DNA of 64,000 nucleotides from an uncultured bacterium (GTDB taxonomy: Bacteria; Armatimonadota; Hebobacteria; Hebobacterales; Hebobacteraceae): contig CAZLHI010000004.1 in NCBI GenBank assembly GCA_964559435.1, positions 23,408-87,407 on the forward strand, in the 5' to 3' direction. Within the stretch, counting starts at the first letter, position 1; each line of letters opens with the position of its first letter. Below the pieces are notes generated by a model. That model was given only the letters and a program-made list of their open reading frames with translations. It did not search any database and was not told where the DNA came from. This document shows, piece after piece, positions 3,571 through 26,405 of the stretch. The translations under genes were made by a program, and so were the position numbers.

Positions 3571-6429
3571 TCAGCCACGCCAGCCGAGAAAGGCGCGGGC
3601 GATGTAGACTGCCATCTGATCCCGAGTGACCGGCCAAGTCGGCCGGTACAAACCGTCAGGATAGCCCTCGATAACAGGGTGCTCGTCAGAGAGAAACTCC
3701 ACGTGGCGATAGCACCAGTAGCCAGAGGGCACGTCGTCGAAGGTGGGGGCGGGCGGGGGCTCGTAGTCCGCGAGCCCTTCCTCCCCGCGGGGCACGACGA
3801 CGGCGCGCGCGATGAAGACGGCCATCTGCCCACGGGTGACATCCCATTCGGGGTGGTAGTTCTGCTCGCCATAGCCTTCCACGATGTTCTCGGCCGCCAC
3901 CCCTTCGATGCTCTCGTAGGCCCAGTGGTCGAGCGGCACGTCCGGGAAGGTGGGCTCATCCGGCGGGGCGGGCACGCCCCCGATGGCCCGGGCGATGAAC
4001 ACCGCCATCTGATCGCGGGTGACGACCACGTTCGGCCGATAATAGCCGTTGGGGTAGCCCTCGACGATGTAGCCAGCCCAGCAGTTGAGGATGGGGGCGT
4101 AGGCCCAGTGGTCCTCCGGGACATCGGGGAAGGTCTTGAGCTGATAGTGGGCGGTCACAGTGTGGTCTTCGTCCATCGTGACAGCGATTGAGGTGGCGAA
4201 ACCAGACTGCTCCCCTGGCTGGGTTACCCCATCGACGTCCCAGTGCGTGAAGAAGTGGAAGGTGGCACGGGCAGGCATGCTGATGGTGACCGTCTCATCG
4301 TAGTCGTAGGTGAAGGCGCAGTCGGTCATGCCCCAGTCGCGCCCGTCGAGGTCCGCGGGCGTGACATAGACCTCCGTGTAGGAGACCGGCGTGGCGCGCA
4401 CCGTGAGCGTGCGCGTGTCCGGGTGCAGCCTCCATTCGTGGGCGCCGCGGTCGGGGGCCGCGCCGGAGGGCACCGTGCCACCCCAGAAGTCGAGGCCGCC
4501 GGCGCCTGGGATGGTCAGGCCGCTGTCAATACACGGGGAGTTGGGCTGGAGCTTGTAGCCGGAGCAGGTGTCGCGACCTATGCCGGCGCCGCCCGGGGCG
4601 GCGAGCAGCGGGTCATCGGTGAGCTTGTGGAGGTCGTCCGGCTCGCCGGGAGGGTGGTTGCCGAAGAAGACGTTGGAGTCGAAGAGGTTGTTGGTGCTCA
4701 AGGCGAAGATGTAGTCTCCGCTCCCGAGGTCGTAGAAGATGTTGTTGTAGAAGCGGGTGTCGTCGGCGTACCCGCCCCAGGAGGTGTGGATGATGGGATC
4801 GACCGACATGCCCTCGCCGATGTAGATCGTGTTGTTGTAGACAGCGGTGTTGGTGGTGGGGCCGGCGATATGGAAAGCGCGGGTGAGGTCGTTCTGGCTG
4901 ATGTTGTAGCGGACGATGGTGCCGTCGTTGAAGCCGCTATAGGTGCCGTTGGCGCAGATGAGGCAGAACCCGCCCTCATTGTCGTGGCTGTAGTTGTATT
5001 GGATGATGGTGTTGTGAGAGAACCAGTCGCTGTCGAACCCCTCGCCGTCGTTGGTGCCCCGGGTGAGATAGGCCTCGTTGTATTGGATGACGGCGTTATC
5101 GCAGTCCCACGGCCAGATGGCCACGCAGTAGCGGCCGGAGCGCATGTTGCAGTCCTTGGCGACGTTGTACTCGACGAGGGGGCCGTCGCAGACCGTCGGC
5201 ACGATGCCGTCCCCCCCGATGTCGTCCACGGAGTTGCTCATGATTTCAACGTTGATGCTCGGCACCCACGAGCCGAGGATGCCGGCGGGAAGATTGCGGT
5301 CCCACCACCAGGAGGAGAGCCAGATGCCGGAGCGGTCCACGCCGCGCACGGTGCAGCCGCCGACGAAGACGCCGTTCCACCAGGTCTCCTTCGACAGCCC
5401 TCGGATGTCGAAGATGATGCCGCCGTTGGCCTTGTGGGAGTCATCGAGGAGGCCGTTGACGTCGTGCACGTCGAGGCCGCTCAGGTTTATGCTGTGCAGG
5501 GCTCCGGCGTCCTCACCGATCACCCAGGCGCCGTAACGAGCGCGAGGGAAAGTTCCGTAGTTGATCAGCTCGAGGCCCCACACCATCCAGTATTCCTGGT
5601 TGAAGAGGCGAAACGGAGCGGTGACGGTCCCGCCGCCGTCGATGAGTGGCAAGGGGCCGCTCCAGTCGCTCTGCAGGATAATCTGATTCCCCGCAGCGCC
5701 TGAGCCCATCGGATCGAGCTGTCCGTTCCACACGCACCCTGACTTGAGGACGATGCGGTCGCCGGGAGCGAATACGACGCTGTTAACCTTGTCGAGTGTG
5801 CGCCACGCCGATTCCGGACTGGTACCCGTGCTGGCGTCATCGCCGTCGATCGAATCAACGTAGTAAGTGGTGTTGCCCGGCGAGAACTCGAGATCGGGTC
5901 CGACGAAGGAGAAGTCGTCGACATAGAGGTAGCCAGGCCCATCGTTCTTCCAGGCAAAGACGCGCATCCAGTCGATGGTGTCGGAGGTCGTGAACTCGAC
6001 TTCTTTGTACGTGTAGACGCTCTCGGTGAACTCGACGCCAGGGGTGAAGCGGTTGCCGTAGATATCGTAGTATTCGACGCCGACCCAACCGACCTCGCCG
6101 GCGACACTGACCATCCCCCACGCGCCCACTCTGTAGGTGGTGTTGGCTCTCGGCTTCCCGTGCGTCTGGGCGCGGCCACCGGTTTCGGGACCGATTTTGA
6201 GAGACCAAGAGCCGGTGTGCGGGTTCTCCGGCACAGCCTGGGCGCTGGGGTAGGGCTCCGCCACGCCCCACGAGGCATAGCCTCCCCAGCCGTCATTACG
6301 GCTCTCGAAGCCGGGGTTGGCAAGCAGGTTGCCTGACCAAGCATGAGCCGGAGAGAGCGAAGCAACCAGCGACAGCAACGCTGCAGCGACGCCGAGCGAC
6401 ACGCGCAGCCAGTCGACTCGACGGAGCAT
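3571..6429 (-). CDS. Large secreted SLH-domain cell-surface protein. Domain order: signal peptide, CBM4/9-like module, right-handed parallel beta-helix (pectate-lyase-like), beta-sandwich, then three C-terminal S-layer homology repeats.
   Basis: Signal peptide MLRRVDWLRVSLGVAAALLSLVASLSPAHA. CBM4_9-like block NLLANPGFE..GW. Repetitive beta-helix block NNTIYIGEG...YNNIFYDL...NVFFGN. C-terminal SLH repeats FPDVP.DHWAY..I...V.GYPDG.YRP...VTRDQMAVFIARA, present three times. The start was chosen at the internal ATG at 6429; the track start is 6468. Confidence 0.85.
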   Translation of the reverse strand: MLRRVDWLRVSLGVAAALLSLVASLSPAHAWSGNLLANPGFESRNDGWGGYASWGVAEPYPSAQAVPENPHTGSWSLKIGPETGGRAQTHGKPRANTTYRVGAWGMVSVAGEVGWVGVEYYDIYGNRFTPGVEFTESVYTYKEVEFTTSDTIDWMRVFAWKNDGPGYLYVDDFSFVGPDLEFSPGNTTYYVDSIDGDDASTGTSPESAWRTLDKVNSVVFAPGDRIVLKSGCVWNGQLDPMGSGAAGNQIILQSDWSGPLPLIDGGGTVTAPFRLFNQEYWMVWGLELINYGTFPRARYGAWVIGEDAGALHSINLSGLDVHDVNGLLDDSHKANGGIIFDIRGLSKETWWNGVFVGGCTVRGVDRSGIWLSSWWWDRNLPAGILGSWVPSINVEIMSNSVDDIGGDGIVPTVCDGPLVEYNVAKDCNMRSGRYCVAIWPWDCDNAVIQYNEAYLTRGTNDGEGFDSDWFSHNTIIQYNYSHDNEGGFCLICANGTYSGFNDGTIVRYNISQNDLTRAFHIAGPTTNTAVYNNTIYIGEGMSVDPIIHTSWGGYADDTRFYNNIFYDLGSGDYIFALSTNNLFDSNVFFGNHPPGEPDDLHKLTDDPLLAAPGGAGIGRDTCSGYKLQPNSPCIDSGLTIPGAGGLDFWGGTVPSGAAPDRGAHEWRLHPDTRTLTVRATPVSYTEVYVTPADLDGRDWGMTDCAFTYDYDETVTISMPARATFHFFTHWDVDGVTQPGEQSGFATSIAVTMDEDHTVTAHYQLKTFPDVPEDHWAYAPILNCWAGYIVEGYPNGYYRPNVVVTRDQMAVFIARAIGGVPAPPDEPTFPDVPLDHWAYESIEGVAAENIVEGYGEQNYHPEWDVTRGQMAVFIARAVVVPRGEEGLADYEPPPAPTFDDVPSGYWCYRHVEFLSDEHPVIEGYPDGLYRPTWPVTRDQMAVYIARAFLGWRG

Positions 6430-6484: not shown

Positions 6485-7670
6485 CTACTCTACTGCTCGC
6501 CGCGACTGCACCTTGGCAGGATCTATCTCGATCCCGAGACCGGGCTTGTCAGGAGGCCGGATGACCCCCGATTCCGGCTGGAGGAATCCCTTCATGAACC
6601 GCTGCTTGTGTCGCTGATGGAGTATGAGGAATTCGACCTGTGGCAGGACCGGCTGCGGAAGGGCCGCGGCCGCGTGTAGCGCAGCGTGAAGCGAGTGGCC
6701 GTGCGGGCAGAGCGGCACATCGTAGGCCGAGCAAAGCGCGGCTATCTTCACGAGTTCGCTGATACCGCCGCACCAGTCGGGATCGGCCTGAATCACGTCG
6801 GCCGCGCTTGCGTCGAGGATTTGCTTGACCTGCCAACGGGTGTACAGGTGTTCCCCTGTCGCGATTGGGATGCCGCTGCTCTCCCGGATTCTCCGCAGCC
6901 CTTCGATCCGGTTCACCGGCACCGGCTCTTCCAGCCATGCGGGCCGGAAAGGCGCGATCCGGCGGCCCATATCGATTGCGTAGGGAACGTCCCAGGAGTT
7001 GAACGCATCGAACATCAGCGCTACATCCTCCCCCACCGCCTCTCTGAGAGTCCGCGCCGTCGCCACATTCTTCGCCGCCCCCTCGTTGCCATCAGCCGGA
7101 CCATAGCGGAAGAACCACTTTTGCGCGCGGTAGCCAAGCTGCTTGTACTCCTGCGCTCGCCGAGCAAGTGCATCCGATTCAAGGGAGAACCCGAGCATGC
7201 TCGCATAGGCGTTGACAGGGCCCTGTACCGGCCCGCCGAGCAGCCGGTACACCGGCTGTCCCAGCACCTTTCCTTTGAGGTCCCACAGAGCGCAGTCCAG
7301 CGCGCTCATCGCCATCATGTAGTATCCGGCACGAGCATGGCGGTTCCGGCGCAGCAGCAGGTCCCAGATCTTCTCGATGGCAAGCGGATCACGCCCCAGC
7401 AAGAAATCCCTCATCTCCCGGCGCAGGATAATCGCATGGGCGCCGTCAACAGGGCCGAACAACCCCGTGACTCCCTCGTCGGTGCGCACCTCCAGGTAGG
7501 CCTCAGTCTGTTGGACCTTCTCCCCCGGCGCGCCGGCCGGCTCGAATGTGCGCGTGCCGCGGAACTCGGGATACACGTCGAGCGGCCTCGAACCCCGCTC
7601 GGCAGCCTGCACCTCGTCGGCCGGAAACTCTCCCGTCAGCTCGAGCAGCACAACATCCGAGATCTTCATG
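6485..7670 (-). CDS. Enolase-superfamily (mandelate racemase/muconate lactonizing enzyme family) sugar-acid dehydratase, for example rhamnonate/galactonate dehydratase-like.
   Basis: MR/MLE hallmarks include FDAFNSWD, WLEEP and IATGEH metal-ligand motifs. The start is set at MKISDVVLLEL (ATG 7670), preceded by GGAGGTG 5 nt upstream. The longer track ORF (7726) lacks an RBS. Confidence 0.85.
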
Positions 7671-7845
7671 CAGCACCTCCAGGAAGCAGCTCGCTCGCCA
7701 TTGGGCTTACCACACGGCGGTCGCATTTCCTATGCACGTGGGACGCTGAGCGAAGGATTGCGGTCGGCCCACGAGCTGGGCACGGAGACTGAAATGGCCT
7801 CGACGCGGCTCCCCATGTGGAAATGATATTGCGAGAGGTGAGTAG

Positions 7846-9087
7846 ATGGCGAAGACGACGTTCGTGCTGCCACTCATGCTGCTGGTCGCAAGCGGCCCGG
7901 TCGCTCTCTGCGCTGAAACCGACTTCGCCGCCATCGACGCCCACGCCCGGTCCGCGCCGCCGTCGGTGAGCCGGTCGATCGACTCTGTCGCCGCCTACCT
8001 GACAGCGCCGGCCCAGGATGACCGGGAGCGGGCGCGTGCGCTGTTCACGTGGATCGCGGTCAACGTGAACTACGACTCTTCGCTCCTGGGAAAGCCGCCC
8101 GATCCCGAGGTCGTGCTAGAGAAGCGACGTGCCGTCTGCGCCGGATACGCGGCGCTCTTCAAGGCGTTGGCGGAGGCGGCGGGTCTGGAAGCGCAGATCA
8201 TCCACGGATACGCCAAAGGCACAGGCCCCGAAGCGGCAATCGAATCCGATGGCCTTCTGACCCACGACTGGAACGCAGTGAGGATCGACGGAGAATGGAC
8301 ACTTCTCGACTGCACCTGGGGCGCGGGACGGCTGGACGAGCAGTATCGCTTCAGGAAACGATTCACCGAACACTATTTTCTTACGTCGCCGGAGATGCTC
8401 GTCTACGACCACTTCCCATTGGACGACAAGTGGCAGCTGCTTCGCGCGCCGATCTCCAAGGGGGAGTTCCTGGCCCGCGCTTGGGTGCAGCCGGCCTTCT
8501 TTGAGCACGACCTTCGCCTGGTCAGCCATGGGAGGAGCAAGATCGAAGCCGACGATTCTCTCGCCATCGTGATTGGGGCGCCCGAGGACACGCTAGTTCT
8601 GGCTTCCATGTCCCAAAACGGGTGGGGCCTGGAGGAAGGCCACACCTTTGCCCAAAGGGGCCCGGACGGATTCGTGATTCGTGCGGCTTTCCCCGCACCG
8701 GGCAACTACGTGCTGCGCATCTTCGCCCGCCGGCGGAATGCTCGCACACAGGAATACGAGTCCGCAGTCGACTACATCGTCCGTGCCAAGCGTTCGACGG
8801 ACAGGATCTTCCCCAAGATGTACGTATCCTTTCAAGAGCGAGGGTGCTATCTCACCTCTCCCATCTCGGGGATCCTGAAGGCGGACGCGCCCGTCGAGTT
8901 CCGAGTGCGGATCCCAGGCGCGGAGGATGTGGTGGTGGGCGTCAACGGCCTGGCGAGACATCTGGGGCGCGCAGGCGACGGAGCCTTCGCCGGCAAGGTG
9001 GTTGTTGAGAGGGGCCAGGCCGCCGTCTTCGGCCGCTTCCCCGGCAGCAAGAGGTACGAGGGTCTGCTGCTCTACGAAGTAAGATGA
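7846..9087 (+). CDS. Secreted transglutaminase-like cysteine protease superfamily protein.
   Basis: N-terminal signal peptide. The transglutaminase-core Cys motif RRAVCAGYAALFKAL is followed by His/Asp-containing blocks (THDWNAVRIDGEWTLLD). RBS GAGAGGTGAG precedes the ATG. Confidence 0.75.
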   Translation: MAKTTFVLPLMLLVASGPVALCAETDFAAIDAHARSAPPSVSRSIDSVAAYLTAPAQDDRERARALFTWIAVNVNYDSSLLGKPPDPEVVLEKRRAVCAGYAALFKALAEAAGLEAQIIHGYAKGTGPEAAIESDGLLTHDWNAVRIDGEWTLLDCTWGAGRLDEQYRFRKRFTEHYFLTSPEMLVYDHFPLDDKWQLLRAPISKGEFLARAWVQPAFFEHDLRLVSHGRSKIEADDSLAIVIGAPEDTLVLASMSQNGWGLEEGHTFAQRGPDGFVIRAAFPAPGNYVLRIFARRRNARTQEYESAVDYIVRAKRSTDRIFPKMYVSFQERGCYLTSPISGILKADAPVEFRVRIPGAEDVVVGVNGLARHLGRAGDGAFAGKVVVERGQAAVFGRFPGSKRYEGLLLYEVR

Positions 9088-16790: not shown

Positions 16791-17837
16791 CTAGTAGAGG
16801 AGCCAGTCGTTGTCGGCCAGGTAGCCCTCGCTCCAGTCGTCGGCCCTGGTCGGTCCCCAGCTAGAAATACCTGTCAGATCCCCCTCGGCGACCTTGTTGA
16901 TCAGGCCTTCCGAGTTGATCCAGGATGCATGCCCGTCGAGGAAGCCGAGGTTGACGCCGCCCAGGTGCCGCGAATACGGCTTGCGTAGATTCGGGTCCTT
17001 CAGGAAGGAGCCGTTGTTCGGCGCCATCAGATACAGCCCGCAGTCGGCCGCCCACGTGCAGATGTCCCAGTCCTGCCAGCCACAGCACGGGTTGCTGCAC
17101 TCCAGTGTGCAGAGGTCTGGATAGGCGGCAAGGCCCACGTTATTGTCCTCAGCGGAGGCGCCAGCATCACCGCAGATGACGTGGTTGACCGGGTCCGGGA
17201 CCTGCACCAGCTTCAGGCCACCCATCCACTGGGTGCCAATGGTCTGGACGAAGGCCTTGTTGACAGCATCCCCGCCATACTCGGCCACGGCGAGCCGGCG
17301 CTGCAGGTACGAGTCTGTGACCTCGCCGCCCCATCCTGGCGGCCAGGACCAGAAGCAGGGGCCAGCGATCCATGTATCGGCATCGGAGGCGCCGGGTCCC
17401 CATTCGGCGTCATAGGCCTGCAGGTAGGTGAACCAGTCAGGCCCGGGCACGATCCAGCTGGCGCCCCCTTCCATCCTGCCACTGGGGCAGCGCCAGACGT
17501 CACGGTTCTTCACGTACTCGTCGAAGATCACCGGATGTCGGAGGTAGGGGTTGCTCTGGAACACACACCAGTCGTCGTAGTCGTCCGGGGCCTTGGTCTC
17601 GTAGTAGTCGTGAATCTCCTGCCTGGTTTCGGTGGGCGGCAGAACGTCGTTGTTGTCCGCCAGGTACATCTGGATTGCCAGCGCAATGTTCTTGACATTG
17701 GACAGGCAGACAGCCTTGCGCGCGGACTCCCGCGCGCGGGCGAACACGGGAAAGACCATAGCGGCCAGGATCCCGATGATCGCGATGACGACCAACAGCT
17801 CAATCAGTGTAAATCCTCGTACTCTCCGCGTACTCAT
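16791..17837 (-). CDS. Prepilin-type N-terminal domain / DUF1559 / H-X9-DG family protein. Paralog 1.
   Basis: N-terminus MSTRRVRGFTLIELLVVIAIIGILAAMVFPVFARARESARKAVCLSNVKNIALA (DUF1559-type). C-terminal H-X9-DG motif HLGGVNLGFLDGH. The start was chosen at the ATG at 17837. Confidence 0.85.
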   Translation of the reverse strand: MSTRRVRGFTLIELLVVIAIIGILAAMVFPVFARARESARKAVCLSNVKNIALAIQMYLADNNDVLPPTETRQEIHDYYETKAPDDYDDWCVFQSNPYLRHPVIFDEYVKNRDVWRCPSGRMEGGASWIVPGPDWFTYLQAYDAEWGPGASDADTWIAGPCFWSWPPGWGGEVTDSYLQRRLAVAEYGGDAVNKAFVQTIGTQWMGGLKLVQVPDPVNHVICGDAGASAEDNNVGLAAYPDLCTLECSNPCCGWQDWDICTWAADCGLYLMAPNNGSFLKDPNLRKPYSRHLGGVNLGFLDGHASWINSEGLINKVAEGDLTGISSWGPTRADDWSEGYLADNDWLLY

Positions 17838-18176
17838 GAAGCTATTCCCCTTCCACACAGAGATTGGGGGCACAGCGTTTCCGAGATCTCGCGCCCCTCA
17901 CGGCACGAGGACGAGCCAGGATAGTCTCACCTCCTTTCAACATGCTTACTCATGGTACTCGCCGCAACGGCGATCCGGCGACCGAGCTGACGGAAACATG
18001 TCGGCCGGAGCCAGCCCCTGACTGCTCAACAGCCATCGCCATTTGCCACAGGCCTGCCGCTGCGGGCCCTTCATCAAGCATTCCGCCAGAAGGCCGGGAA
18101 ACCCTGCGGCGAGAAGCGCCCTTCCTTTTCGTAGTCTCCACTAGTGTAATTCTACGGGAATGGCCTTTCCTAGTCA

Positions 18177-18213: not shown

Positions 18214-19119
18214 ATGGAACAATACCCACCAGTTTCCGGTTTCGCCGTCGCTTCGGACGCTCCTGCCTTGCGTCTCGAGTACGGCCTGTCGCCAGATTCG
18301 CCGCTGTACGCTGACAGCAACGTCTTCGAGGGCGAGGTGCCGCTGGTCGTCCATGTGCACGAAGGCATAGAGTTCGGCATCCTGCTGTCCGGGGAGCAGG
18401 AGCGGCGCTTCGGAGAACTCGTCTGGGAGATTCGCCCAGGGGACGTGTGGCTGTGCGCGACCTGGGAGCCTCACGGCTACCGGATCATCGCGCCGGAAAG
18501 CACCGACGTCGTAGTGATGTTCCTGCCCGAGTTTCTTGGCGAGGAGAGGCTGGGAGAGCTTTCCTGGCTGAGCCTGTTCGCGGCTTCGCCCGCTCGCCGG
18601 CCGCGCGTCACTGAGGACGGCATGCGGGAGCAAATGCTGGCCGTCGGCCGGGAGATGCAGTGCGAAATCAGCGAGAAGCAGCCCGGCTGGCACAGCGCCG
18701 TTCGGCTTGATCTCCTGAGGGCCTTGCTGACGCTCAGCCGAGCCTGGGAGCCCCCGGCTCGGTCCGAAGCGCGGTCTCGAGTGCAGGCAAGCAACCTTCC
18801 CAGAATCATGCCTGCCCTCGTCTTGCTCCACTCGGAACGAGGTCGCCGCGTGGGGCTGGAGGAGGCGGCCAGAAAGTGTGGTCTCGGCAGGGCGCAGTTC
18901 TCCCTGGTGTTCCGGGATACCATGGGCGTGAGCTTCGGCAAGTTCTGCCTGCGATCACGCCTCGGGTTGGTGGCGGAGCTGCTTCTCTCTACGGACTTGC
19001 CCACTCAGTCAATCGCACAGAGAGCCGGCTTCGTGGATGGAAGCCACATGCACAGGGCCTTCGTAGCTCACTATGGATGCACGCCGGGCCAATACAGGGC
19101 CCAGAACCGGTCCGGCTGA
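18214..19119 (+). CDS. AraC-family transcriptional regulator. Paralog 2.
   Basis: Same architecture and C-terminal HTH as paralog 1 (AELLLSTDLPTQSIAQRAGFVDGSHMHRAFVAHYGCTPGQYR). Confidence 0.85.
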   Translation: MEQYPPVSGFAVASDAPALRLEYGLSPDSPLYADSNVFEGEVPLVVHVHEGIEFGILLSGEQERRFGELVWEIRPGDVWLCATWEPHGYRIIAPESTDVVVMFLPEFLGEERLGELSWLSLFAASPARRPRVTEDGMREQMLAVGREMQCEISEKQPGWHSAVRLDLLRALLTLSRAWEPPARSEARSRVQASNLPRIMPALVLLHSERGRRVGLEEAARKCGLGRAQFSLVFRDTMGVSFGKFCLRSRLGLVAELLLSTDLPTQSIAQRAGFVDGSHMHRAFVAHYGCTPGQYRAQNRSG

Positions 19120-19133
19120 GCGCGCGCTCCCTG

Positions 19134-20690
19134 TCACGTCTCCGGCGTGCTCTCCCTCAAGAGAAGATCGCGGTAGGTGGTCAGGCGCACTCCGCTGTCG
19201 GTGACTGCTGCTGCCACCTGAGCACTGGTCAGTGCCCCGAGCTCCTGCTCCCATCGGTAGTTCCAGCCAAGCTCCCGGTCGACGCTGTCGTCCGCTCCCG
19301 GGTGGCAGCCGACTTCAGTGAGACCTGTCCCGAGGCCGTGGATTGTGCGCCCAAGAGAGTCGGCCTTCCACCGACCGGCCTCGGCGAAGCCGCGGAAGTC
19401 GTCTGCCGTCAGGAAGCCGTTCCCGCGGAGGGAACGCGCGCCTAGGCAACAGAGGGCCCGTAAGGCGACGAGTTCAGTCCTCCGCCTTGTGCTGTGCAGC
19501 AGGCCGCCTCCGGTGCTACAGGAACGCACCTGCCTGGGACAGCGCACCGCTCCTATCCTGTATTCGGAGGCGAGCCCGACCACGACCGGCAGCACCTTTG
19601 GCAGCATGTGCAGGTGCTGATGGCTATCCATGTGGGAGAAGGGCAGGCCGGTTGAGAGGGCCCGCTCGATCTGCGCGCGCAGCTCGGCCTCGATCTCACC
19701 CGTGCGAGTTCTAGGGTAACGCCTCAGGAAGTGCTGCCAGCTCGCGGCGAACCATCCCGCCTGGTCGACGAGACTCGGTATGCGCCTGGACGCCGTCAGC
19801 GCTCGTCGTTCCGTCAACGCCAGGTGGATCCCGAGGTCGAGCGCGGGGCGCTCGCGGGCCAGGGCAACCGCGTGCTCGAAGCTGTCCCCCGTGGGCATCA
19901 GGCTCGCGCTCGTCACGATGCCGCGGTCGAAAGCTTCGGCCACGCCCACATCGATCTCCTTCCTCAGGCCGAAATCGTCTGCGTTCACGATCAGGTGCAC
20001 TGGTCCCGCGCGGCGTCGCCAGTAGCGCCACATCTCTCGGAAGATATGCATCACGACGCGCGTGCTGGCGGCCGTGGAGAGGCCGGCCACCCGCGGATGG
20101 TAGTGGATGCCGACCTCCCGGACGCGAGCGCCAAGCCGCGCCGCCTCGAGCAGCAGCTCTGCGTCGATGAACGAACCCTCGCTCCTCAGCCGCATCTGTT
20201 GGAGCAGCTCGCGGCGCATCAGCTTGAAGGCGAAGTTCACGTCCCGGACCCGCAGCGCGAAGGAGACACGAATCAGCCGGTTGTAGGTCCACGACATGAT
20301 CTCCCTGCGAGGCCCTTCGGCCCGGCCGACGCGGTAGCCGATCAGCAGGTCGACGTCGCCGGTGAACTCGGCGATCGCGGCCCGGGCCTCCTCCACGCTC
20401 ACAGGGAAATCGGAGTCCATGTAGAGAACTAAGTCCTTCGTCGCGCCGGCGAGGCCGCCGCGGATGGCGGCGCCGAGGCCGCGGTTGCGTGAGTGATGAA
20501 CCGCGACGATATTCGAATGCTGTGCCGCCAGTTCGTCTATGAACGCGCCACTGCCATCAGTGCTGCCGTCGTCGACCAGCACCACTTCGAAGTCCGAGAC
20601 AAGGCCCTCGGCAATCTGACTCGTCTCGGGTAGAAGCCGCGGCAGATTGTCGATCTCGTTGTATACTGGATAGACGAACGAGAGATTCAT
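19134..20690 (-). CDS. Bifunctional fusion: N-terminal GT2 polyprenyl-phosphate sugar transferase (DPM1/ArnC/GtrB-like) plus C-terminal YdjC/ChbG-family carbohydrate deacetylase.
   Basis: N-terminal GT2 signature MNLSFVYPVYNE...VVLVDDGSTDGS...YMDSDF. The C-terminal half carries the YdjC motifs LIVNADDFGL...SHMDSHQHLHMLP. The start was chosen at the second ATG (MNLSF...). Confidence 0.8.
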   Translation of the reverse strand: MNLSFVYPVYNEIDNLPRLLPETSQIAEGLVSDFEVVLVDDGSTDGSGAFIDELAAQHSNIVAVHHSRNRGLGAAIRGGLAGATKDLVLYMDSDFPVSVEEARAAIAEFTGDVDLLIGYRVGRAEGPRREIMSWTYNRLIRVSFALRVRDVNFAFKLMRRELLQQMRLRSEGSFIDAELLLEAARLGARVREVGIHYHPRVAGLSTAASTRVVMHIFREMWRYWRRRAGPVHLIVNADDFGLRKEIDVGVAEAFDRGIVTSASLMPTGDSFEHAVALARERPALDLGIHLALTERRALTASRRIPSLVDQAGWFAASWQHFLRRYPRTRTGEIEAELRAQIERALSTGLPFSHMDSHQHLHMLPKVLPVVVGLASEYRIGAVRCPRQVRSCSTGGGLLHSTRRRTELVALRALCCLGARSLRGNGFLTADDFRGFAEAGRWKADSLGRTIHGLGTGLTEVGCHPGADDSVDRELGWNYRWEQELGALTSAQVAAAVTDSGVRLTTYRDLLLRESTPET

Positions 20691-22410
20691 GCCGCCTGCC
20701 ATGAGCTCAAGACTGCTCCAGCCCGCCGCCCGCCGCGACCGAGATTGGCGTCGTCTTTGCTACCCACTGCTTCTGCTCGCGCTGTGTGCTGTGCTGTTCT
20801 TCTGGCGACTTGGCGTCACTCCGCTCGATGACTTCGACGAGGCCTACTACGCTGAGGCCGCCCGGGAGATGCTCGAGCGCGGCAACCTCGGCACGCCCTA
20901 CTACAACGGGAAACCGTTCCTGCTGAAGCCCATTCTGATCTACTGGCTGATCGCCGGCGCCTTTCGCCTTTTCGGCATCACCGAGTTCGCCGCTCGGTCG
21001 GTGTCAGCCTTTTTCGCCATTGTTATCGTCCTGACCACCTACTGGTTCGCCGCCCGCACACTGAGCATGACCGCCGGCCTGCTGGCAGGGCTCATGCTCG
21101 CCCTCTGCTACTTCTGGATTGACACCGGCCGAGAGGCGATGATAGACATGCCCCTGACCGCCGCGCTCGCCCCGGCCGTCTTCTTCTTCTTCCTCGCCAC
21201 GCGTGCCCCCCCAGATCGCAAGCCCGTTCTCTACCTGGCGGCCTACCCGCTCCTGGGAGTTTCTCTGCTGGCCAAAGGTCCCGTCGCCACGGGTGTGGTG
21301 CTTGTGGGACTCATGGCGTACTTGGCTGGCGCGAGGCGATTGCGAGCGACCCTTGCAGAGGCCCGACTCATCCCAGGGATCGCTCTCATGCTCGCGGTCG
21401 CAGCGCCCTGGTACCTCTACGAGTCCCTCCAACAGCCGGAGTTCATTCGAACATTCCTGATCGGGGAGCACTTCGGCCACTTGCACGGGGAGCTGGCGCG
21501 CGATGAACCCTGGTGGGGACACCTGAAGAACCTCCTGATCGGCTTCTACCCCTGGGCGGCGTTCGTGCCCGCCGCCTTCGCACACGCGTTCCGGCAAGAA
21601 AGAGAGAGCGTTCTCCGATTTGCCGCCTGGTGGGCGCTCGTCGTCATCGTTGCCTTCTCCTTCGCAGGAGCCAAGCTGCCGCATTATCTCGTCCCCGCTT
21701 TTCCGGCCCTGGCAATTCTCACCTCGGGTTGGTTTGAGGCATGGGTGCTGGGGCGGGCCCCCAGCAGGGCCTTGACAGGACTCGGCGTGACTCTGCTCGC
21801 GCTCATAGGCGCCACTCTCCTCGCTGCGACCGTGATTGCAATCCTCATGCCGTTGCCTCTGCGCGCCCGGCTGGCGGCCAGCTGGGGTTCTTGGACGCCC
21901 GGCGCTGCGCCGGTCGTCATGTTGGCGGCCCTTGCCATCGGGTCAACCGGGGCCGCCGCGGCCGCAGTAGCCGGCCGCCGACGCGCGGTCTTCCCCCTCC
22001 TCGCCGCAGCCGTCGCGCTAGCCGCGGTGGCACACATCGGCTGGTTCAAGCCGCGGCTGGCGCAGATTCAGGCGCAGCCGCGCAAGGAGCTGGCCCAGTT
22101 CGCAGCCACAGCCCTCCCCGAGGAGGAGCCGCTCGGCGTCTACTACGCGAAGCGCAACGCCACCATCTTCTATGCGCGCCGGCCCATCGTGGATCTTGGC
22201 CAATGGGAAGTGGCAGAGCTGACCTGCTTCCTCTCCTCGCCAGCTCCAGCCACGGCTCTGACGCACGCCAAGTTCATCTCCGCCCTGATCCAGGAGGTTC
22301 CCGAACTGCACGTGTGGAGGCGGCGCGGTGACTTCGTCCTGGTCTCCAACCATCCGATTCCCTCCGTTGGGAGCCGTGCGCCCGAGGCCGACTCCCGACG
22401 GCAGCCATGA
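20689..22410 (+). CDS. GT-C fold glycosyltransferase of the ArnT/PMT (GT83/GT39) family, using a polyprenyl-phosphate-sugar donor.
   Basis: 573 aa with about 12 TM. The N-terminal ArnT/PMT block is FDEAYYAEAAREMLERGNLGTPYYNGKPFLLKPILIYWLIAGAFRLFG. The start codon overlaps the divergent GT2-YdjC start within CATG; 20701 is an alternative start. Confidence 0.8.
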   Translation: MPPAMSSRLLQPAARRDRDWRRLCYPLLLLALCAVLFFWRLGVTPLDDFDEAYYAEAAREMLERGNLGTPYYNGKPFLLKPILIYWLIAGAFRLFGITEFAARSVSAFFAIVIVLTTYWFAARTLSMTAGLLAGLMLALCYFWIDTGREAMIDMPLTAALAPAVFFFFLATRAPPDRKPVLYLAAYPLLGVSLLAKGPVATGVVLVGLMAYLAGARRLRATLAEARLIPGIALMLAVAAPWYLYESLQQPEFIRTFLIGEHFGHLHGELARDEPWWGHLKNLLIGFYPWAAFVPAAFAHAFRQERESVLRFAAWWALVVIVAFSFAGAKLPHYLVPAFPALAILTSGWFEAWVLGRAPSRALTGLGVTLLALIGATLLAATVIAILMPLPLRARLAASWGSWTPGAAPVVMLAALAIGSTGAAAAAVAGRRRAVFPLLAAAVALAAVAHIGWFKPRLAQIQAQPRKELAQFAATALPEEEPLGVYYAKRNATIFYARRPIVDLGQWEVAELTCFLSSPAPATALTHAKFISALIQEVPELHVWRRRGDFVLVSNHPIPSVGSRAPEADSRRQP

Positions 22411-22689
22411 CTCGCCTCGAAAGTCGGTGCCCCAGAGGCATGACTGCACGTGGCCCCGCCCCTCCAGCTCACGTACGGCGAGTGCCCCGGGGGAGGCGGC
22501 GCCTCCCCCCAACGCGGGCGGAGCGCCCAAACGGACGCTCCGCCTTAGCACTCCATAGAAAGCCTATCTTGCTAGCGCAAGATCTTAGCCAGTCTTAGCC
22601 GCCAGGCCTACAAGCGCCTTGGCGGGCGCTCCGCCCTTCGAGTCCGCAGAAGGAAAGCGTATCCTGCCAGTGCAGGATCGGAGCCAGTA

Positions 22690-23727
22690 CTAGTAGATCA
22701 GCCAGTTGTTCTCCGCGAGGTAGCCCTCGCTCCAGTCATCGTCCGTCGTCGGTCCCCACGGACCCACGCCCGAGAGATCTTCCTCTTTTATCTTGTTGAG
22801 AACAGTCTGGGAGTTGAACCACTGCGCGTGACCGTCGAGGAAGCCGATGTTTATGCCGCCCAAGTGACGCGCGTACGGCTTCCGTAACTCGGGGTTGGCG
22901 AGGAACGAGCCGTTGTTCGGGGCGCCGTTGTAGAGCCCGCAGTCCACGGCCCAGGTGCAGAGATCCCAGTCATACCAGCCGCAGCACGGGTTGCTGCACT
23001 CCAGGTTGCAGAGGTCCGGGTAGGCCAGGGTTCCCGCACCGAAGTCGTCAACGATGACGCCCGCGTCGCCGCAGACGACAGCGTTGACCGGGTCCGGCAC
23101 CGAGACCAGCTTCAGGCCTGATGCATAGACCGTCCCGATGCTCTGCACGAACGCCTTGTGGGCACCTACGGCGGTCCGCCCCTGCAGGATGGAGTCGGTG
23201 ACCTCACCGCCCCAGCCGCTCGGCCAGATTACACCGCACGGCTTCAGGTCGTAGTCGCCCGTTCCCCAGTCTCCCTCGTTGGCCACCATAAAGCCAAACC
23301 AGTCCGGGATCGGGATGACCCCACCCGCGCCGCCTTCGACCTTGGCGCTCGGGCACCGCCACACGTCGCGGTTCTTGACGTACTCGTCGAGAATCACCGG
23401 TATCCGCAGATACGGGTTCGACTGCCGGGCACGGTGGCAATCTCCGTCTTCGTCCACGTCCCAGCCATCCTCCCTGCCACCTGGTGCCAGGTTGAAGTAG
23501 TCCAGCACTTCCCGCCGGTGCTCTTCGGGCGGAAGTGTGTCGTTGTTGTCCGCCAGATACATCTGAAACGCCAGGGCGATGTTCTTGACATTGGAGAGAC
23601 ACACGGCCTTTCGGGCAGACTCGCGTGCCCTTGCGAAGACCGGGAAGACCATCGCGGCAAGAATCCCGATGATCGCGATCACCACCAACAGCTCAATGAG
23701 CGTGAATCCCTTGCGTCCTCGTAGCAT
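22690..23727 (-). CDS. Prepilin-type N-terminal domain / DUF1559 / H-X9-DG family protein. Paralog 2.
   Basis: N-terminus MLRGRKGFTLIELLVVIAIIGILAAMVFPVFARARESARKAVCLSNVKNIALA. C-terminal motif HLGGINIGFLDGH. Strong RBS GGAGGAGGTG upstream of the ATG at 23727. Confidence 0.85.
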   Translation of the reverse strand: MLRGRKGFTLIELLVVIAIIGILAAMVFPVFARARESARKAVCLSNVKNIALAFQMYLADNNDTLPPEEHRREVLDYFNLAPGGREDGWDVDEDGDCHRARQSNPYLRIPVILDEYVKNRDVWRCPSAKVEGGAGGVIPIPDWFGFMVANEGDWGTGDYDLKPCGVIWPSGWGGEVTDSILQGRTAVGAHKAFVQSIGTVYASGLKLVSVPDPVNAVVCGDAGVIVDDFGAGTLAYPDLCNLECSNPCCGWYDWDLCTWAVDCGLYNGAPNNGSFLANPELRKPYARHLGGINIGFLDGHAQWFNSQTVLNKIKEEDLSGVGPWGPTTDDDWSEGYLAENNWLIY

Positions 23728-24472
23728 GCTAGGTCCTTCACCTCCTCCAGATTGTCACGACCCGAGTAACCCGTTCGGCTGAGTTACCGTTCCGCCAATG
23801 TTATGTCCGCCACCTCCTTTCCGTTTCTCAGCCGGCGCGTTCTTGCGGCACTCCGACAGACTTTGCCGCTATGTGACCCGCGCGTTGTGCGCGTTACCCG
23901 GCATATTCAGTGTACCCAGCCAGGGACTAGAGGCACACCTGTATCACAGACAAGGCGCTCGCCAAGGCTGCGAGCGCCCCATGGATCACGTTCTCTTCGT
24001 TGCCCAGCCGCACGCGCCGCTCCGCCGGGCTCCAGCAGACGCCGCATCGGAGCGAAATCGGAGGGGCCAACACACCGGGCCCGTCGGACGGGCCCTCTGC
24101 CGGCCCAACGCGGGAGACACCAGGACGAACGTATGAATACATGCTTTCTCGCCGGACAGAACTAGACCCTCACACAGCGTCCGGAGAACCGTTCGAATGG
24201 TAACATTTCGCCGCTCATCCGTCAAGAAGCTTTTTTGCCGCGACAACGCCCCAGAGCGCTCGGCGCCGGTCACCGGTGTCAGGGACGAGCGGACCGTCCC
24301 CCATCACGTCAAGCGGTTCCACGGCGACAGCGTGTTGGTGGGAGGCTGCTCTCCCAGCGAAAGGCGGCCGGAGTCGCCCCCCAGAAGGGATGTGCCGGCA
24401 AGGCCGTTGCGGGGTGCCCAACCAAGCGGTTTGCCAGTCAAAGCGGGGTGCGGCGACAATCAAGTCACGGCA

Positions 24473-25096
24473 TCAGTCGGGAGCCCCGGCTTCCAGGGCA
24501 ACGATGCGGCGCGCCACCTCGACGAGCTTGGTGTTCGACCGGCTGCTGGTGCGCTGAAGCCAGCGATAGGCTTCCTGCTCTCCGACGTTCATGTCCCGCA
24601 TGATGATGCCTTTGGCGCGCTCGACCAGCTTGCGGGCGTCCAGAGAGTCCTTCAGGTCGCCGACCTCGCCGCGGAGGGACTGCAGATCCCTGAAGCGGGC
24701 CTGTGCCGTGGCGATGGCGGCTGCCAACCGTTCCCGGGTGATGGGCTTCACGAGGTAGCTGAAAACACCAGCCTCTGCCGCGTCCTCGATAAGTGACTGA
24801 TCTGTGTGGCCGGTGATGATAACGATGGGCACGGAATGCTCACCCAGGATGGACCTGGCCGCTTCGAGACCGTTCAGTTCCGGCATACGGATGTCGAGCA
24901 GGACGAGGTCAGGGCCGGTCTGCGCCGCCATGTCCACCGCCTCTCGGCCATCTCGGGCCTGTGCCACAACCTGGTGGCCGAGGGATTCGGACATGCGGAC
25001 GATTGCCGTCAGGACGGCTTCCTCGTCGTCAGCCACGAGAAGTCTCAGAGTTCCCACGTCGCCCCCTGCGCCACCCGCCCTATTGCCCCCGCTCAC
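24473..25096 (-). CDS. Response regulator with a REC domain and an ANTAR RNA-binding antitermination output domain (AmiR/NasT-like).
   Basis: REC block LLVADDEE...DLVLLDIRMPELNGLEA. ANTAR block ERAKGIIMRDMNVGEQEAYRWLQRTSSRSNTKLVEVARRIV. The true start may be the internal GTG at about 25060 (MGTLRLLVADDE). Confidence 0.85.
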   Translation of the reverse strand: MSGGNRAGGAGGDVGTLRLLVADDEEAVLTAIVRMSESLGHQVVAQARDGREAVDMAAQTGPDLVLLDIRMPELNGLEAARSILGEHSVPIVIITGHTDQSLIEDAAEAGVFSYLVKPITRERLAAAIATAQARFRDLQSLRGEVGDLKDSLDARKLVERAKGIIMRDMNVGEQEAYRWLQRTSSRSNTKLVEVARRIVALEAGAPD

Positions 25097-25403
25097 TTAT
25101 TCCACAAGAAGGACCCTTCTATGTGGCCAGGCATGCTAGCGCACAATTGAGCCTGCGGGGGTGGGCCAGCAGGCCGCGGGAGCACGGGGCCCCGGGAGCA
25201 CGACACAGGACATGTGCCAGGGACTGAGCGTTGGAGGCGCCAAACCATCTCACTCGCTTGCTTGAACTGTGGAATGTCCCCAGTGGGGAGGAGGCAGACC
25301 AGGCGCCCGACTGCGTCCTCGTACCGGTCGGTCCTGAGTTCCACCCACCCCTTCGGCGTGTCAGGGTCCTTCGTCTGCCCGCTCGACGGAGGCTTCTTGG
25401 CAA

Positions 25404-26405
25404 ATGGGAACAGCAGCGAAGCCGCCAGACCGTGCAGAACTGACAAGCACAACAAACAGCCTGGACTCACTCAACAATATCGAGAGGGCACATCAGCGTC
25501 TATGGACTCTGGCATTCATCCTCTTCGTGCTCGTGAGCCTGAGCCTGCTGATGCTCGACGCGAGCTCTGGCGCTGCCGAACGTATTTTCGCCGGCGTGAA
25601 GACCACGGCCCGAGTTCTTCTCGACCAGTACGGCACGGCCGTGGCGCTGTCTGTCATCATCCTCCTCATCTGCGCCTATTTCTATGAGAAGTTGGGCATC
25701 GTCCGGGAGCAGAGCCGACAGCTCGTCGGGGCGCTGGAGGCCAACGCGCGGCTCCTCGGCCTGCGCAACCATCAGCTTGACACATGGGACCAGCTCAGTC
25801 ACCAACTGATCACCAACTTCAATCTGCCGCGCCTTCTCGAGCTCATTGCCAGGACGGCAGCAGAGGTCACAGAGTCGGACTGCAGCGCCGTCATGGTGGC
25901 CGAGAACGACAGCCCTCATCTGAGATTGGCGGCCATCTACGAGCGCGGGATGCAGACGGAACTGGCGCGGCGTGTCGCCTGCAAGCTCATAGAGACAGGC
26001 AAGCCGGTGGACCTCCGGCCCGGATCGGCCCCGGAAGATCTGGATAGGCCGGACTTGGAGTGGCAGCATCTCGTTGGTATCGCAGCAACACCTCTCCTCG
26101 CGCCCGACGCCATCAAGGGAGCGCTCCTTGTGGGCCGGCTGAAGCCGGAGGAGCCTTTCCCGAGCAATGTCGCCGGCGTTCTGCAATCGTTCGGAAGCCA
26201 GGCTTCCATCGCCCTGGAGAAGGCGCAGCTCTACGCGGAGAGCCAAAAGCAGCTTCAGAGACTCGCCAAGCTGCTCGGGGAGTTGCGCTCCGCGCATGAG
26301 CGGCTCCACGCGCCAGCTGCAGCCGCCGAGCGCGCCGATGCAGCGGGGCAACAGGCGGATCTCCATAGAGAGCGGTCACAGGAGAGCACCACCGAGCCGG
26401 TTTAG
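25404..26405 (+). CDS. Membrane-anchored GAF-domain protein with a C-terminal coiled coil and no kinase domain.
   Basis: One N-terminal TM segment. GAF-like block LPRLLELIARTAAEVTESDCSAVMVAEND...LAAIYERG, followed by a helical Q/A/R-rich tail. Confidence 0.6.
   Translation: MGTAAKPPDRAELTSTTNSLDSLNNIERAHQRLWTLAFILFVLVSLSLLMLDASSGAAERIFAGVKTTARVLLDQYGTAVALSVIILLICAYFYEKLGIVREQSRQLVGALEANARLLGLRNHQLDTWDQLSHQLITNFNLPRLLELIARTAAEVTESDCSAVMVAENDSPHLRLAAIYERGMQTELARRVACKLIETGKPVDLRPGSAPEDLDRPDLEWQHLVGIAATPLLAPDAIKGALLVGRLKPEEPFPSNVAGVLQSFGSQASIALEKAQLYAESQKQLQRLAKLLGELRSAHERLHAPAAAAERADAAGQQADLHRERSQESTTEPV

Follow-up and report, generated by a model that had tools for sequence, protein, structure and literature searches.

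A putative attenuator-type leader, conserved in Armatimonadota, between a REC-ANTAR regulator gene and a DUF1559 gene, without the canonical ANTAR target motif

The RNA target of ANTAR regulators consists of two short stem-loops joined by a linker of 2-25 nt. Both have hexanucleotide loops in which the first base is A and the fourth is G, and the downstream one of the two overlaps a terminator or a ribosome-binding site (RBS) (PMC3369931, PMC8164766). Here, we analyzed a locus in a stretch of 64,000 nt (the window; positions 23,408 to 87,407 of contig CAZLHI010000004.1, assembly GCA_964559435.1) from an uncultured bacterium of the Armatimonadota, in which a gene of the DUF1559 family, DUF1559-2, lies downstream of a same-strand gene for a REC-ANTAR response regulator. 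As in the EutV/eut, NasR/nasF and AmiR/amiE systems, an ANTAR regulator is here encoded beside a gene that has a strong promoter and a terminator-like hairpin in its leader, and EutV, like the window regulator, is a REC-ANTAR protein (PMC3369931). Different from these systems, the terminator-like element of the window is not overlapped by an A1/G4 hexaloop pair, the leader continues for ~215 nt past it, and the target gene is pilin-like rather than a catabolic operon. We show that DUF1559-2 has a real, conserved leader of putative attenuator type; its control by the ANTAR regulator is plausible and unproven. Positions are those of the window, and features lie on its minus strand unless stated otherwise.

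Two further described systems are close to parts of this locus. One is PdtaS/PdtaR of Mycobacterium, in which PdtaR (Rv1626, PDB 1s8n) is the closest solved relative of the window regulator. PdtaS, the partner sensor of PdtaR, also uses a GAF domain. Unlike PdtaS, the GAF protein of the locus described here is membrane-anchored, and its kinase module is either absent or mostly carries Tyr in place of His. Actinobacterial ANTAR regulators can also act on translation at the RBS (PMC8164766), whereas the RBS of DUF1559-2 has no ANTAR motif. The other system is cry3A of Bacillus thuringiensis, where a STAB-SD element lies ~125 nt upstream of the start codon in a 558-nt leader, binds the 30S subunit and blocks 5'-3' decay, with a primary 5' end at -558 and a stable one at -129 (PMC4113751). 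Similarly, the leader of DUF1559-2 is several hundred nucleotides long and includes, ~100 nt ahead of the start codon, a perfect Shine-Dalgarno sequence (GAAAGGAGG) that begins no open reading frame (ORF); compared to -558 and -129 in cry3A, transcription is predicted to start at ~-462, and the orphan Shine-Dalgarno sequence spans -95 to -84. The two cases differ in phylum, and the element of the window is common to many DUF1559 paralogues rather than belonging to one toxin gene. The literature library searched yielded no paper on how DUF1559 genes are regulated. The locus is best filed as a new combination, in which an attenuator-type leader is linked to an ANTAR two-component system, lacks the defining ANTAR motif and carries in addition a STAB-SD-like element.

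The regulator gene (24473-25096) and DUF1559-2 (22690-23727) were both confirmed by their Pfam domains, as an original prediction made from this DNA had supposed. They are separated by 745 nt (23728-24472), which is indeed unusually long, since a crude map of the genes in the window gives a median gap of ~77 nt. The original prediction regarded the whole spacer as an untranslated leader transcribed by read-through from the regulator gene; instead, a conserved promoter inside the spacer starts a shorter leader. This sigma-70-type promoter (24225-24197), which was also called by a promoter scan, lies ~245 nt past the REC-ANTAR stop codon and is near-consensus, reading CTTGACG-N15-TGnTAnnAT with the -35 element TTGACG at 24225-24220 and the extended -10 element TGtTACCAT at 24205-24197. 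When nine spacers were aligned, the single invariant block was CTTGAC(G), 15 nt and TGnTAnnAT, all columns of the -35 and -10 elements being invariant. The pattern CTTGAC-N14-16-TGnTAnnnT is present in 18 related Armatimonadota loci and occurs only once in the 64-kb window, and locus L119, from the complete genome CP070816.1, has TTGACA-17-TAACAT at the equivalent place (related loci are numbered with the prefix L). The 3' flank of the regulator gene (24226-24472), by comparison, is poorly conserved: it had no blastn match in the moderately related locus L115, where MAFFT alignment gave only scattered identities beside a near-identical promoter, and the spacers between the regulator stop codon and the promoter are unalignable, with hairpins or U-runs there in several relatives. 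Because the promoter block is conserved while the regulator 3' flank is unalignable, DUF1559-2 is very probably a transcription unit of its own, with a transcription start predicted near 24189 and a 5' leader of ~462 nt (23728-24189); leaders of 300-500 nt are found in homologous loci.

Midway in this leader we found an intrinsic-terminator-like element (23978-23943), which consists of the hairpin GGCGCTCGC-AGCCTTG-GCGAGCGCC (23978-23954) followed by UUGUCUGUGAU. Its GC-rich stem has 9 bp (ΔG -18.2 kcal/mol) and a local z score of -2.28, and its tail, UUGUCUGU, has 5 U in 8 nt and is interrupted. The 745-nt spacer as a whole folds no more strongly than its shuffles (z -0.02). A terminator-like structure had been rightly expected in the leader by the original prediction, and its proposed place, a weak terminator at 24355-24385, was wrong: that segment lies upstream of the promoter in the poorly conserved regulator flank, has a z score of -0.51 and no blastn match in L115, and the predicted stem takes up its U run.

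The terminator-like element recurs in the homologous leaders. A loose terminator predictor was non-discriminating (10 of 11 leaders versus 7.8 in shuffles) and was replaced by a strict definition, namely a hairpin of at most 36 nt with ΔG <= -16 and at least 5 T among the 8 nt that follow it, compared against dinucleotide shuffles. By this definition, seven of 11 distinct leaders have one site each, always in mid-leader, versus 0.15 +/- 0.36 in the shuffled leaders; L119 and L122 also have such a site in a looser scan (ΔG <= -14, hairpin at most 40 nt, at least 4 T). The stem sequences of the leader hairpin differ completely between lineages, suggesting that it is maintained as a structure. 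Small hairpins with 4-5-nt loops lie over the 5' arm of the terminator in five or six leaders and are absent from the window and L103. Segments upstream of the terminator pair with its 5' arm no better than shuffles do (mean z +0.3), and a self-contained antiterminator helix was rejected on this ground.

Apart from this element, the upstream half of the leader shows little conservation. It opens with a hairpin read from the sequences, P1 (24184-24152; CCGGAC...GTCCGG, followed by CGAGAA), whose pairing is retained with other bases in L115 (CCGGGCA/TGTCCGG), L103 (CCGCA/TGCGG) and L104 (CCGT/ACGG). The stretch after P1 varies between 86 and 212 nt in relatives, and a k-mer search of the upstream half for a common motif yielded nothing above shuffles; an alignment and consensus folding of this half by MAFFT and RNAalifold misaligned the window sequence and was uninformative. 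At gathering score, Rfam gave no match in the window and nine loci, and a permissive search (E <= 10) gave only a chance-level match to Rhodo-rpoB (18.7 versus 33.6 bits, E 8.6). A 40-codon ORF with a TTG start occupies 24108-23986 of the window (leader positions 81-203) and stops 10 nt short of the terminator stem. In L104, L100 and L092, too, ORFs stop 1-15 nt short of the terminator. These ORFs have no start, frame, Shine-Dalgarno sequence or peptide in common, and at 65% G+C such lengths are to be expected by chance. The possibility of a conserved leader peptide was dismissed, as peptide matches appear in all three frames and in close relatives only.

Downstream of the terminator-like element, the leader carries a series of conserved features that ends at the RBS. 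The best-conserved of them is a 28-nt box, GGGTACACTGAATATGCCGGGTAACGCG (23917-23890), which is unique in the window and 93% identical to L115 between unalignable flanks, with variants in other leaders. It includes a -10-like TACACT (23914-23909), and neither a -35 element nor a TG extension could be read from the sequence of any relative; a sigma-54 reading was rejected on spacing, since the box reads GG-N12-GC instead of N10. Hairpin a (23893-23879; CGCGC-ACAAC-GCGCG) was the sole element recovered when the downstream half of eight leaders was analyzed by MAFFT and RNAalifold, and its loop has 4-5 nt in most relatives (GUGA, UGAG, AGAA, GGAA) and 7 nt in L100, with no hexaloops. Hairpin b (23869-23845; GCGGCA-13 nt-TGCCGC), read from the sequences, retains its pairing with other stems in L104 and L116 (GGAGGC/GCCTCC) and in L115 (GGGGCGG/CCGCCCC). 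The true Shine-Dalgarno sequence of DUF1559-2, GGAGGAGGTG (23748-23739), precedes the ATG at 23727, and GAGGAGG and the ATG are invariant in the alignment.

Between hairpin b and the RBS lies the orphan Shine-Dalgarno sequence GGAAAGGAGGTG (23822-23811; -95 to -84 from the ATG), behind which the longest ORF has four codons. The pattern A[AG]GGAGGTG has three copies in the 64 kb, one of which is a normal RBS, while the other two are orphans ~85-100 nt upstream of both DUF1559 genes of the window. The second orphan is at 17936-17928, upstream of DUF1559-1; both are perfect (GAAAGGAGGTG) and have no ORF behind them. Among the fetched loci, about 14 of 17 leaders of DUF1559 paralogues have such an orphan, including those linked to AraC-type genes. 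The element agrees in sequence with the definition of a STAB-SD, its 16S complementarity being assumed from the general bacterial anti-Shine-Dalgarno sequence and not from that of the organism itself.

The order of genes around the leader is also conserved. The regulator has its closest genomic relatives in metagenome-assembled genomes of Armatimonadota, and when metagenomes were scanned with its ANTAR half, 33 further loci with orthologues were obtained. The arrangement of regulator, spacer and DUF1559 gene is conserved across 19 loci, and promoter and leader were found in 16 of 38 regulator-orthologue loci; in 12 loci, the window counted, the regulator is followed after 450-760 nt by a same-strand DUF1559 gene or the start of a leader. 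Starting from the other side, six of seven DUF1559-2 homologues (64-76% identity) stand in the order GAF gene, REC-ANTAR gene, 620-870 nt, DUF1559 gene, and the seventh (L120, 1706-2758) adjoins a divergent ECF sigma factor gene (252-845). The architecture of the leader locus can be regarded as solidly conserved. Other DUF1559 paralogues adjoin other regulators, of AraC type or ECF sigma factors, and four of five examined have no leader terminator; in the window itself, DUF1559-1 (16791-17873) adjoins an AraC-type gene (18214-19119, plus strand). Since each DUF1559 paralogue adjoins a different regulator, these data suggest one dedicated regulator per paralogue.

Several loci show variations on this order. 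Where the leader is absent, the gene behind the GAF and REC-ANTAR pair encodes a sulfatase, and its promoter is ordinary and its leader short. More generally, one or two sulfatase genes lie behind DUF1559 in related loci, or immediately behind the regulator in those without DUF1559 (L103, 6564-7988; L104, 3357-4700; L115, 4578-6326; L116, 4333-5862; L117, 5310-6782; L121, 4885-6399); the window has no sulfatase at that place, where a PMT_2 glycosyltransferase gene lies on the opposite strand (20689-22410). In L091 (about 5510-5600), the DUF1559 leader retains a TTGACC promoter-like site, an orphan Shine-Dalgarno sequence and a terminator hairpin (ΔG -16.2 kcal/mol) followed by TTCTTCTT, although an AraC-type gene sits between the regulator and DUF1559. 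In L001 (Armatimonadetes genome OY970296), the DUF1559 gene adjoining the regulator (7031-8077) is split over two frames by a frameshift or an assembly error.

The regulator is of the PdtaR/EutV type, with Response_reg (E 1.6e-27, 96.3 bits, cut-off 30.2) and ANTAR (E 6.1e-20, 71.2 bits, cut-off 27.3) domains of Pfam. Its nearest solved relatives are 1s8n, annotated as a 'putative antiterminator' (E 6e-40), and chain 6wsh (E 4.5e-30), and the Asp in its LVLLDIRMP motif aligns with the Asp of 1s8n. The ORF as listed has 207 amino acids from a GTG at 25096, 13 codons more than from the GTG at 25057; because the orthologues are called at 194 amino acids, the true start is probably the latter. The DUF1559-2 protein has a prepilin-type N-terminal methylation domain, a DUF1559 start and a C-terminal H-X9-DG, that is, both defining motifs of prepilin-type/H-X9-DG (DUF1559) proteins. 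It matches N_methyl and SBP_bac_10 of Pfam and, above their cut-offs, TIGR02532 (36 bits, cut-off 16.3) and TIGR04294 (21.3 bits, cut-off 19) of NCBIfam, and it has more than 2000 homologues.

Divergently from the regulator, the window encodes a membrane protein with a Pfam GAF domain and no kinase domain (25404-26405, plus strand), which the original prediction had named as the only sensor-like partner of the regulator. This proposal agrees with the conservation of the placement, as tblastn located a divergent GAF gene beside the regulator in nearly every locus with upstream sequence. The same short form without kinase is present in 14 other loci, so that a truncation artefact in the window was rejected. 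A long form with HATPase_c was found in eight loci (L001, 4065-5489; L091, L095, L096, L084, L106, L083 and L119), in most of which the H-box reads GGVAYVINNP, with Tyr replacing the phospho-accepting His; the His is kept only in L083. Because the short forms have no kinase and most long forms have Tyr for His, signalling between the GAF protein and the regulator may not proceed via His-Asp phosphotransfer. AmiC/AmiR and NasS/NasT signal by protein-protein contact, and by analogy the pair described here could do the same.

Based on these features, we propose the following mechanism. The near-consensus, probably constitutive promoter at 24225-24197 would start a structured leader of ~462 nt, and the GC-rich hairpin with its U-rich tail at 23978-23943, halfway along, would halt most transcripts by attenuation. 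Transcripts that read through would bear the two further hairpins, the orphan Shine-Dalgarno sequence at 23822-23811 and then the true RBS, and the orphan would probably retain a 30S subunit and so stabilise the mRNA in the manner of a STAB-SD. The REC-ANTAR regulator, signalled by the divergent GAF protein, would be the likeliest factor to decide on read-through. Control after initiation is implied by the presence of a near-consensus promoter ahead of the terminator. A self-contained riboswitch is unlikely and a trans-acting factor likelier, because no competing pairing with the 5' arm was detected and the upstream half is unconserved; the lack of both a competitor and a motif fits a factor-dependent switch better than a ligand-binding riboswitch. 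The candidacy of the ANTAR regulator is strengthened by the facts that one regulator adjoins each DUF1559 paralogue and that the one next door to this leader is RNA-binding. That attenuation of the DUF1559-2 leader depends on the ANTAR protein is, in our estimate, a possibility not far below an even chance. As the canonical dual hexaloop is absent (see below), such control would need a non-canonical RNA site, and the more specific proposal, that REC-ANTAR controls read-through of the leader terminator via a site other than the dual A..G.. hexaloop, seems unlikely, though by no means far-fetched.

Several results weigh against ANTAR control of this leader, above all those from the search for the canonical target, in which stems of at least 3 bp and linkers of 2-25 nt were required and one deviation from A/G was tolerated in the relaxed scan. 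The window leader with 30-nt flanks contains no hexaloop hairpin of the ANTAR type at all. In 12 leaders, no strict A..G.. pair was found versus 1.9 expected from shuffles, and with one deviation allowed there were 26 pairs versus 29.5 in shuffles, none in the window and with positions unconserved; hexaloop pairs of any sequence numbered 530 versus 539. Nor was there an ANTAR motif in the RBS region (-120 to +90 of the ATG), and the window as a whole has 27 dual hexaloops versus 31.8 in shuffles, without enrichment. Since these scans were negative in the leader, its homologues, the RBS region and the window, the leader does not belong to the known family of ANTAR targets. Of what the original prediction held, antitermination control of a pseudopilin-like gene thus retains the conserved arrangement in 19 loci and a terminator-like element and loses the canonical motif. 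Of the two outcomes it had named as speaking against it, the dual-hairpin motif is indeed missing, while a promoter of DUF1559-2's own exists but, at ~470 nt from the RBS, is not the nearby one that had been named. In addition, the U-tract of the window terminator is weak, and the built-in terminator scan made no call there or anywhere in 22400-25600; L115, L084 and L089 have no convincing leader terminator; and a DUF1559 leader adjoins the regulator orthologue in only about half of the loci, L081, the closest of all, being among those that lack it.

The leader and hairpin could also be real and yet independent of the ANTAR regulator, an explanation that we find doubtful but of substantial weight. 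The hairpin would then be a constitutive partial terminator or an element of stability or processing, or read-through would be set by ribosomes on a leader ORF, by a small RNA, by Rho or by NusG, while the regulator and the GAF protein would act on targets elsewhere in the genome and their adjacency would be inherited gene order. Such independence would agree with the absence of the canonical motif and with the loci, about half, in which the GAF and REC-ANTAR pair has no leader and a sulfatase gene comes next, and the ORFs that end shortly before the terminator in four loci would suit control by ribosomes; these ORFs, however, have in common neither frame nor Shine-Dalgarno sequence nor peptide, and their lengths are those of chance. 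Moreover, six of the seven DUF1559-2 homologues are linked to the regulator, and a terminator behind a near-consensus promoter calls for control after initiation, for which an RNA-binding regulator is at hand in the adjoining gene.

Alternatively, a separate small RNA gene could be made up of the promoter, the initial ~235 nt and the terminator, with DUF1559-2 transcribed mainly from a second promoter at the box and having a leader of ~180 nt. The terminator would indeed yield a discrete RNA of ~235 nt, and the box at 23917-23890, with TAnAnT in most relatives, is the best-conserved element of the leader; but no relative has a -35 element or a TG extension there, Rfam recognizes no family, and an upstream half that is unconserved in sequence and length (86-212 nt) would be unusual for a trans-acting RNA. 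We consider this explanation improbable. The original prediction taken literally, that is, co-transcription of regulator and DUF1559-2 into a 745-nt leader whose terminator at 24355-24385 is overridden via canonical dual hexaloops, draws on the adjacency of the two genes on one strand. It is scarcely credible and already largely refuted, given the conserved internal promoter, a hairpin of shuffle level and poor conservation, the lack of any dual hexaloop, and the hairpins or U-runs directly 3' of the regulator gene in several relatives.

In Armatimonadota, Planctomycetota and Verrucomicrobiota, the DUF1559/H-X9-DG proteins form one of the most expanded gene families, and to our knowledge neither their function nor their regulation is known. 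The locus described here combines, in a compact, conserved and testable unit, a sensor and an RNA-binding regulator with a strong promoter, a leader terminator and a stabiliser-like element. Action of the ANTAR protein on the leader would mean that the known RNA code of ANTAR regulators is incomplete; without such action, the leader would still be an attenuator not described so far. Control by the ANTAR protein through a non-canonical site, if true, would reveal a second mode of ANTAR recognition and a new family of structured leaders, and the large DUF1559/H-X9-DG family of pseudopilin-like proteins would gain its first known regulatory input. Either way, the orphan Shine-Dalgarno sequence would extend the STAB-SD idea outside the Firmicutes.

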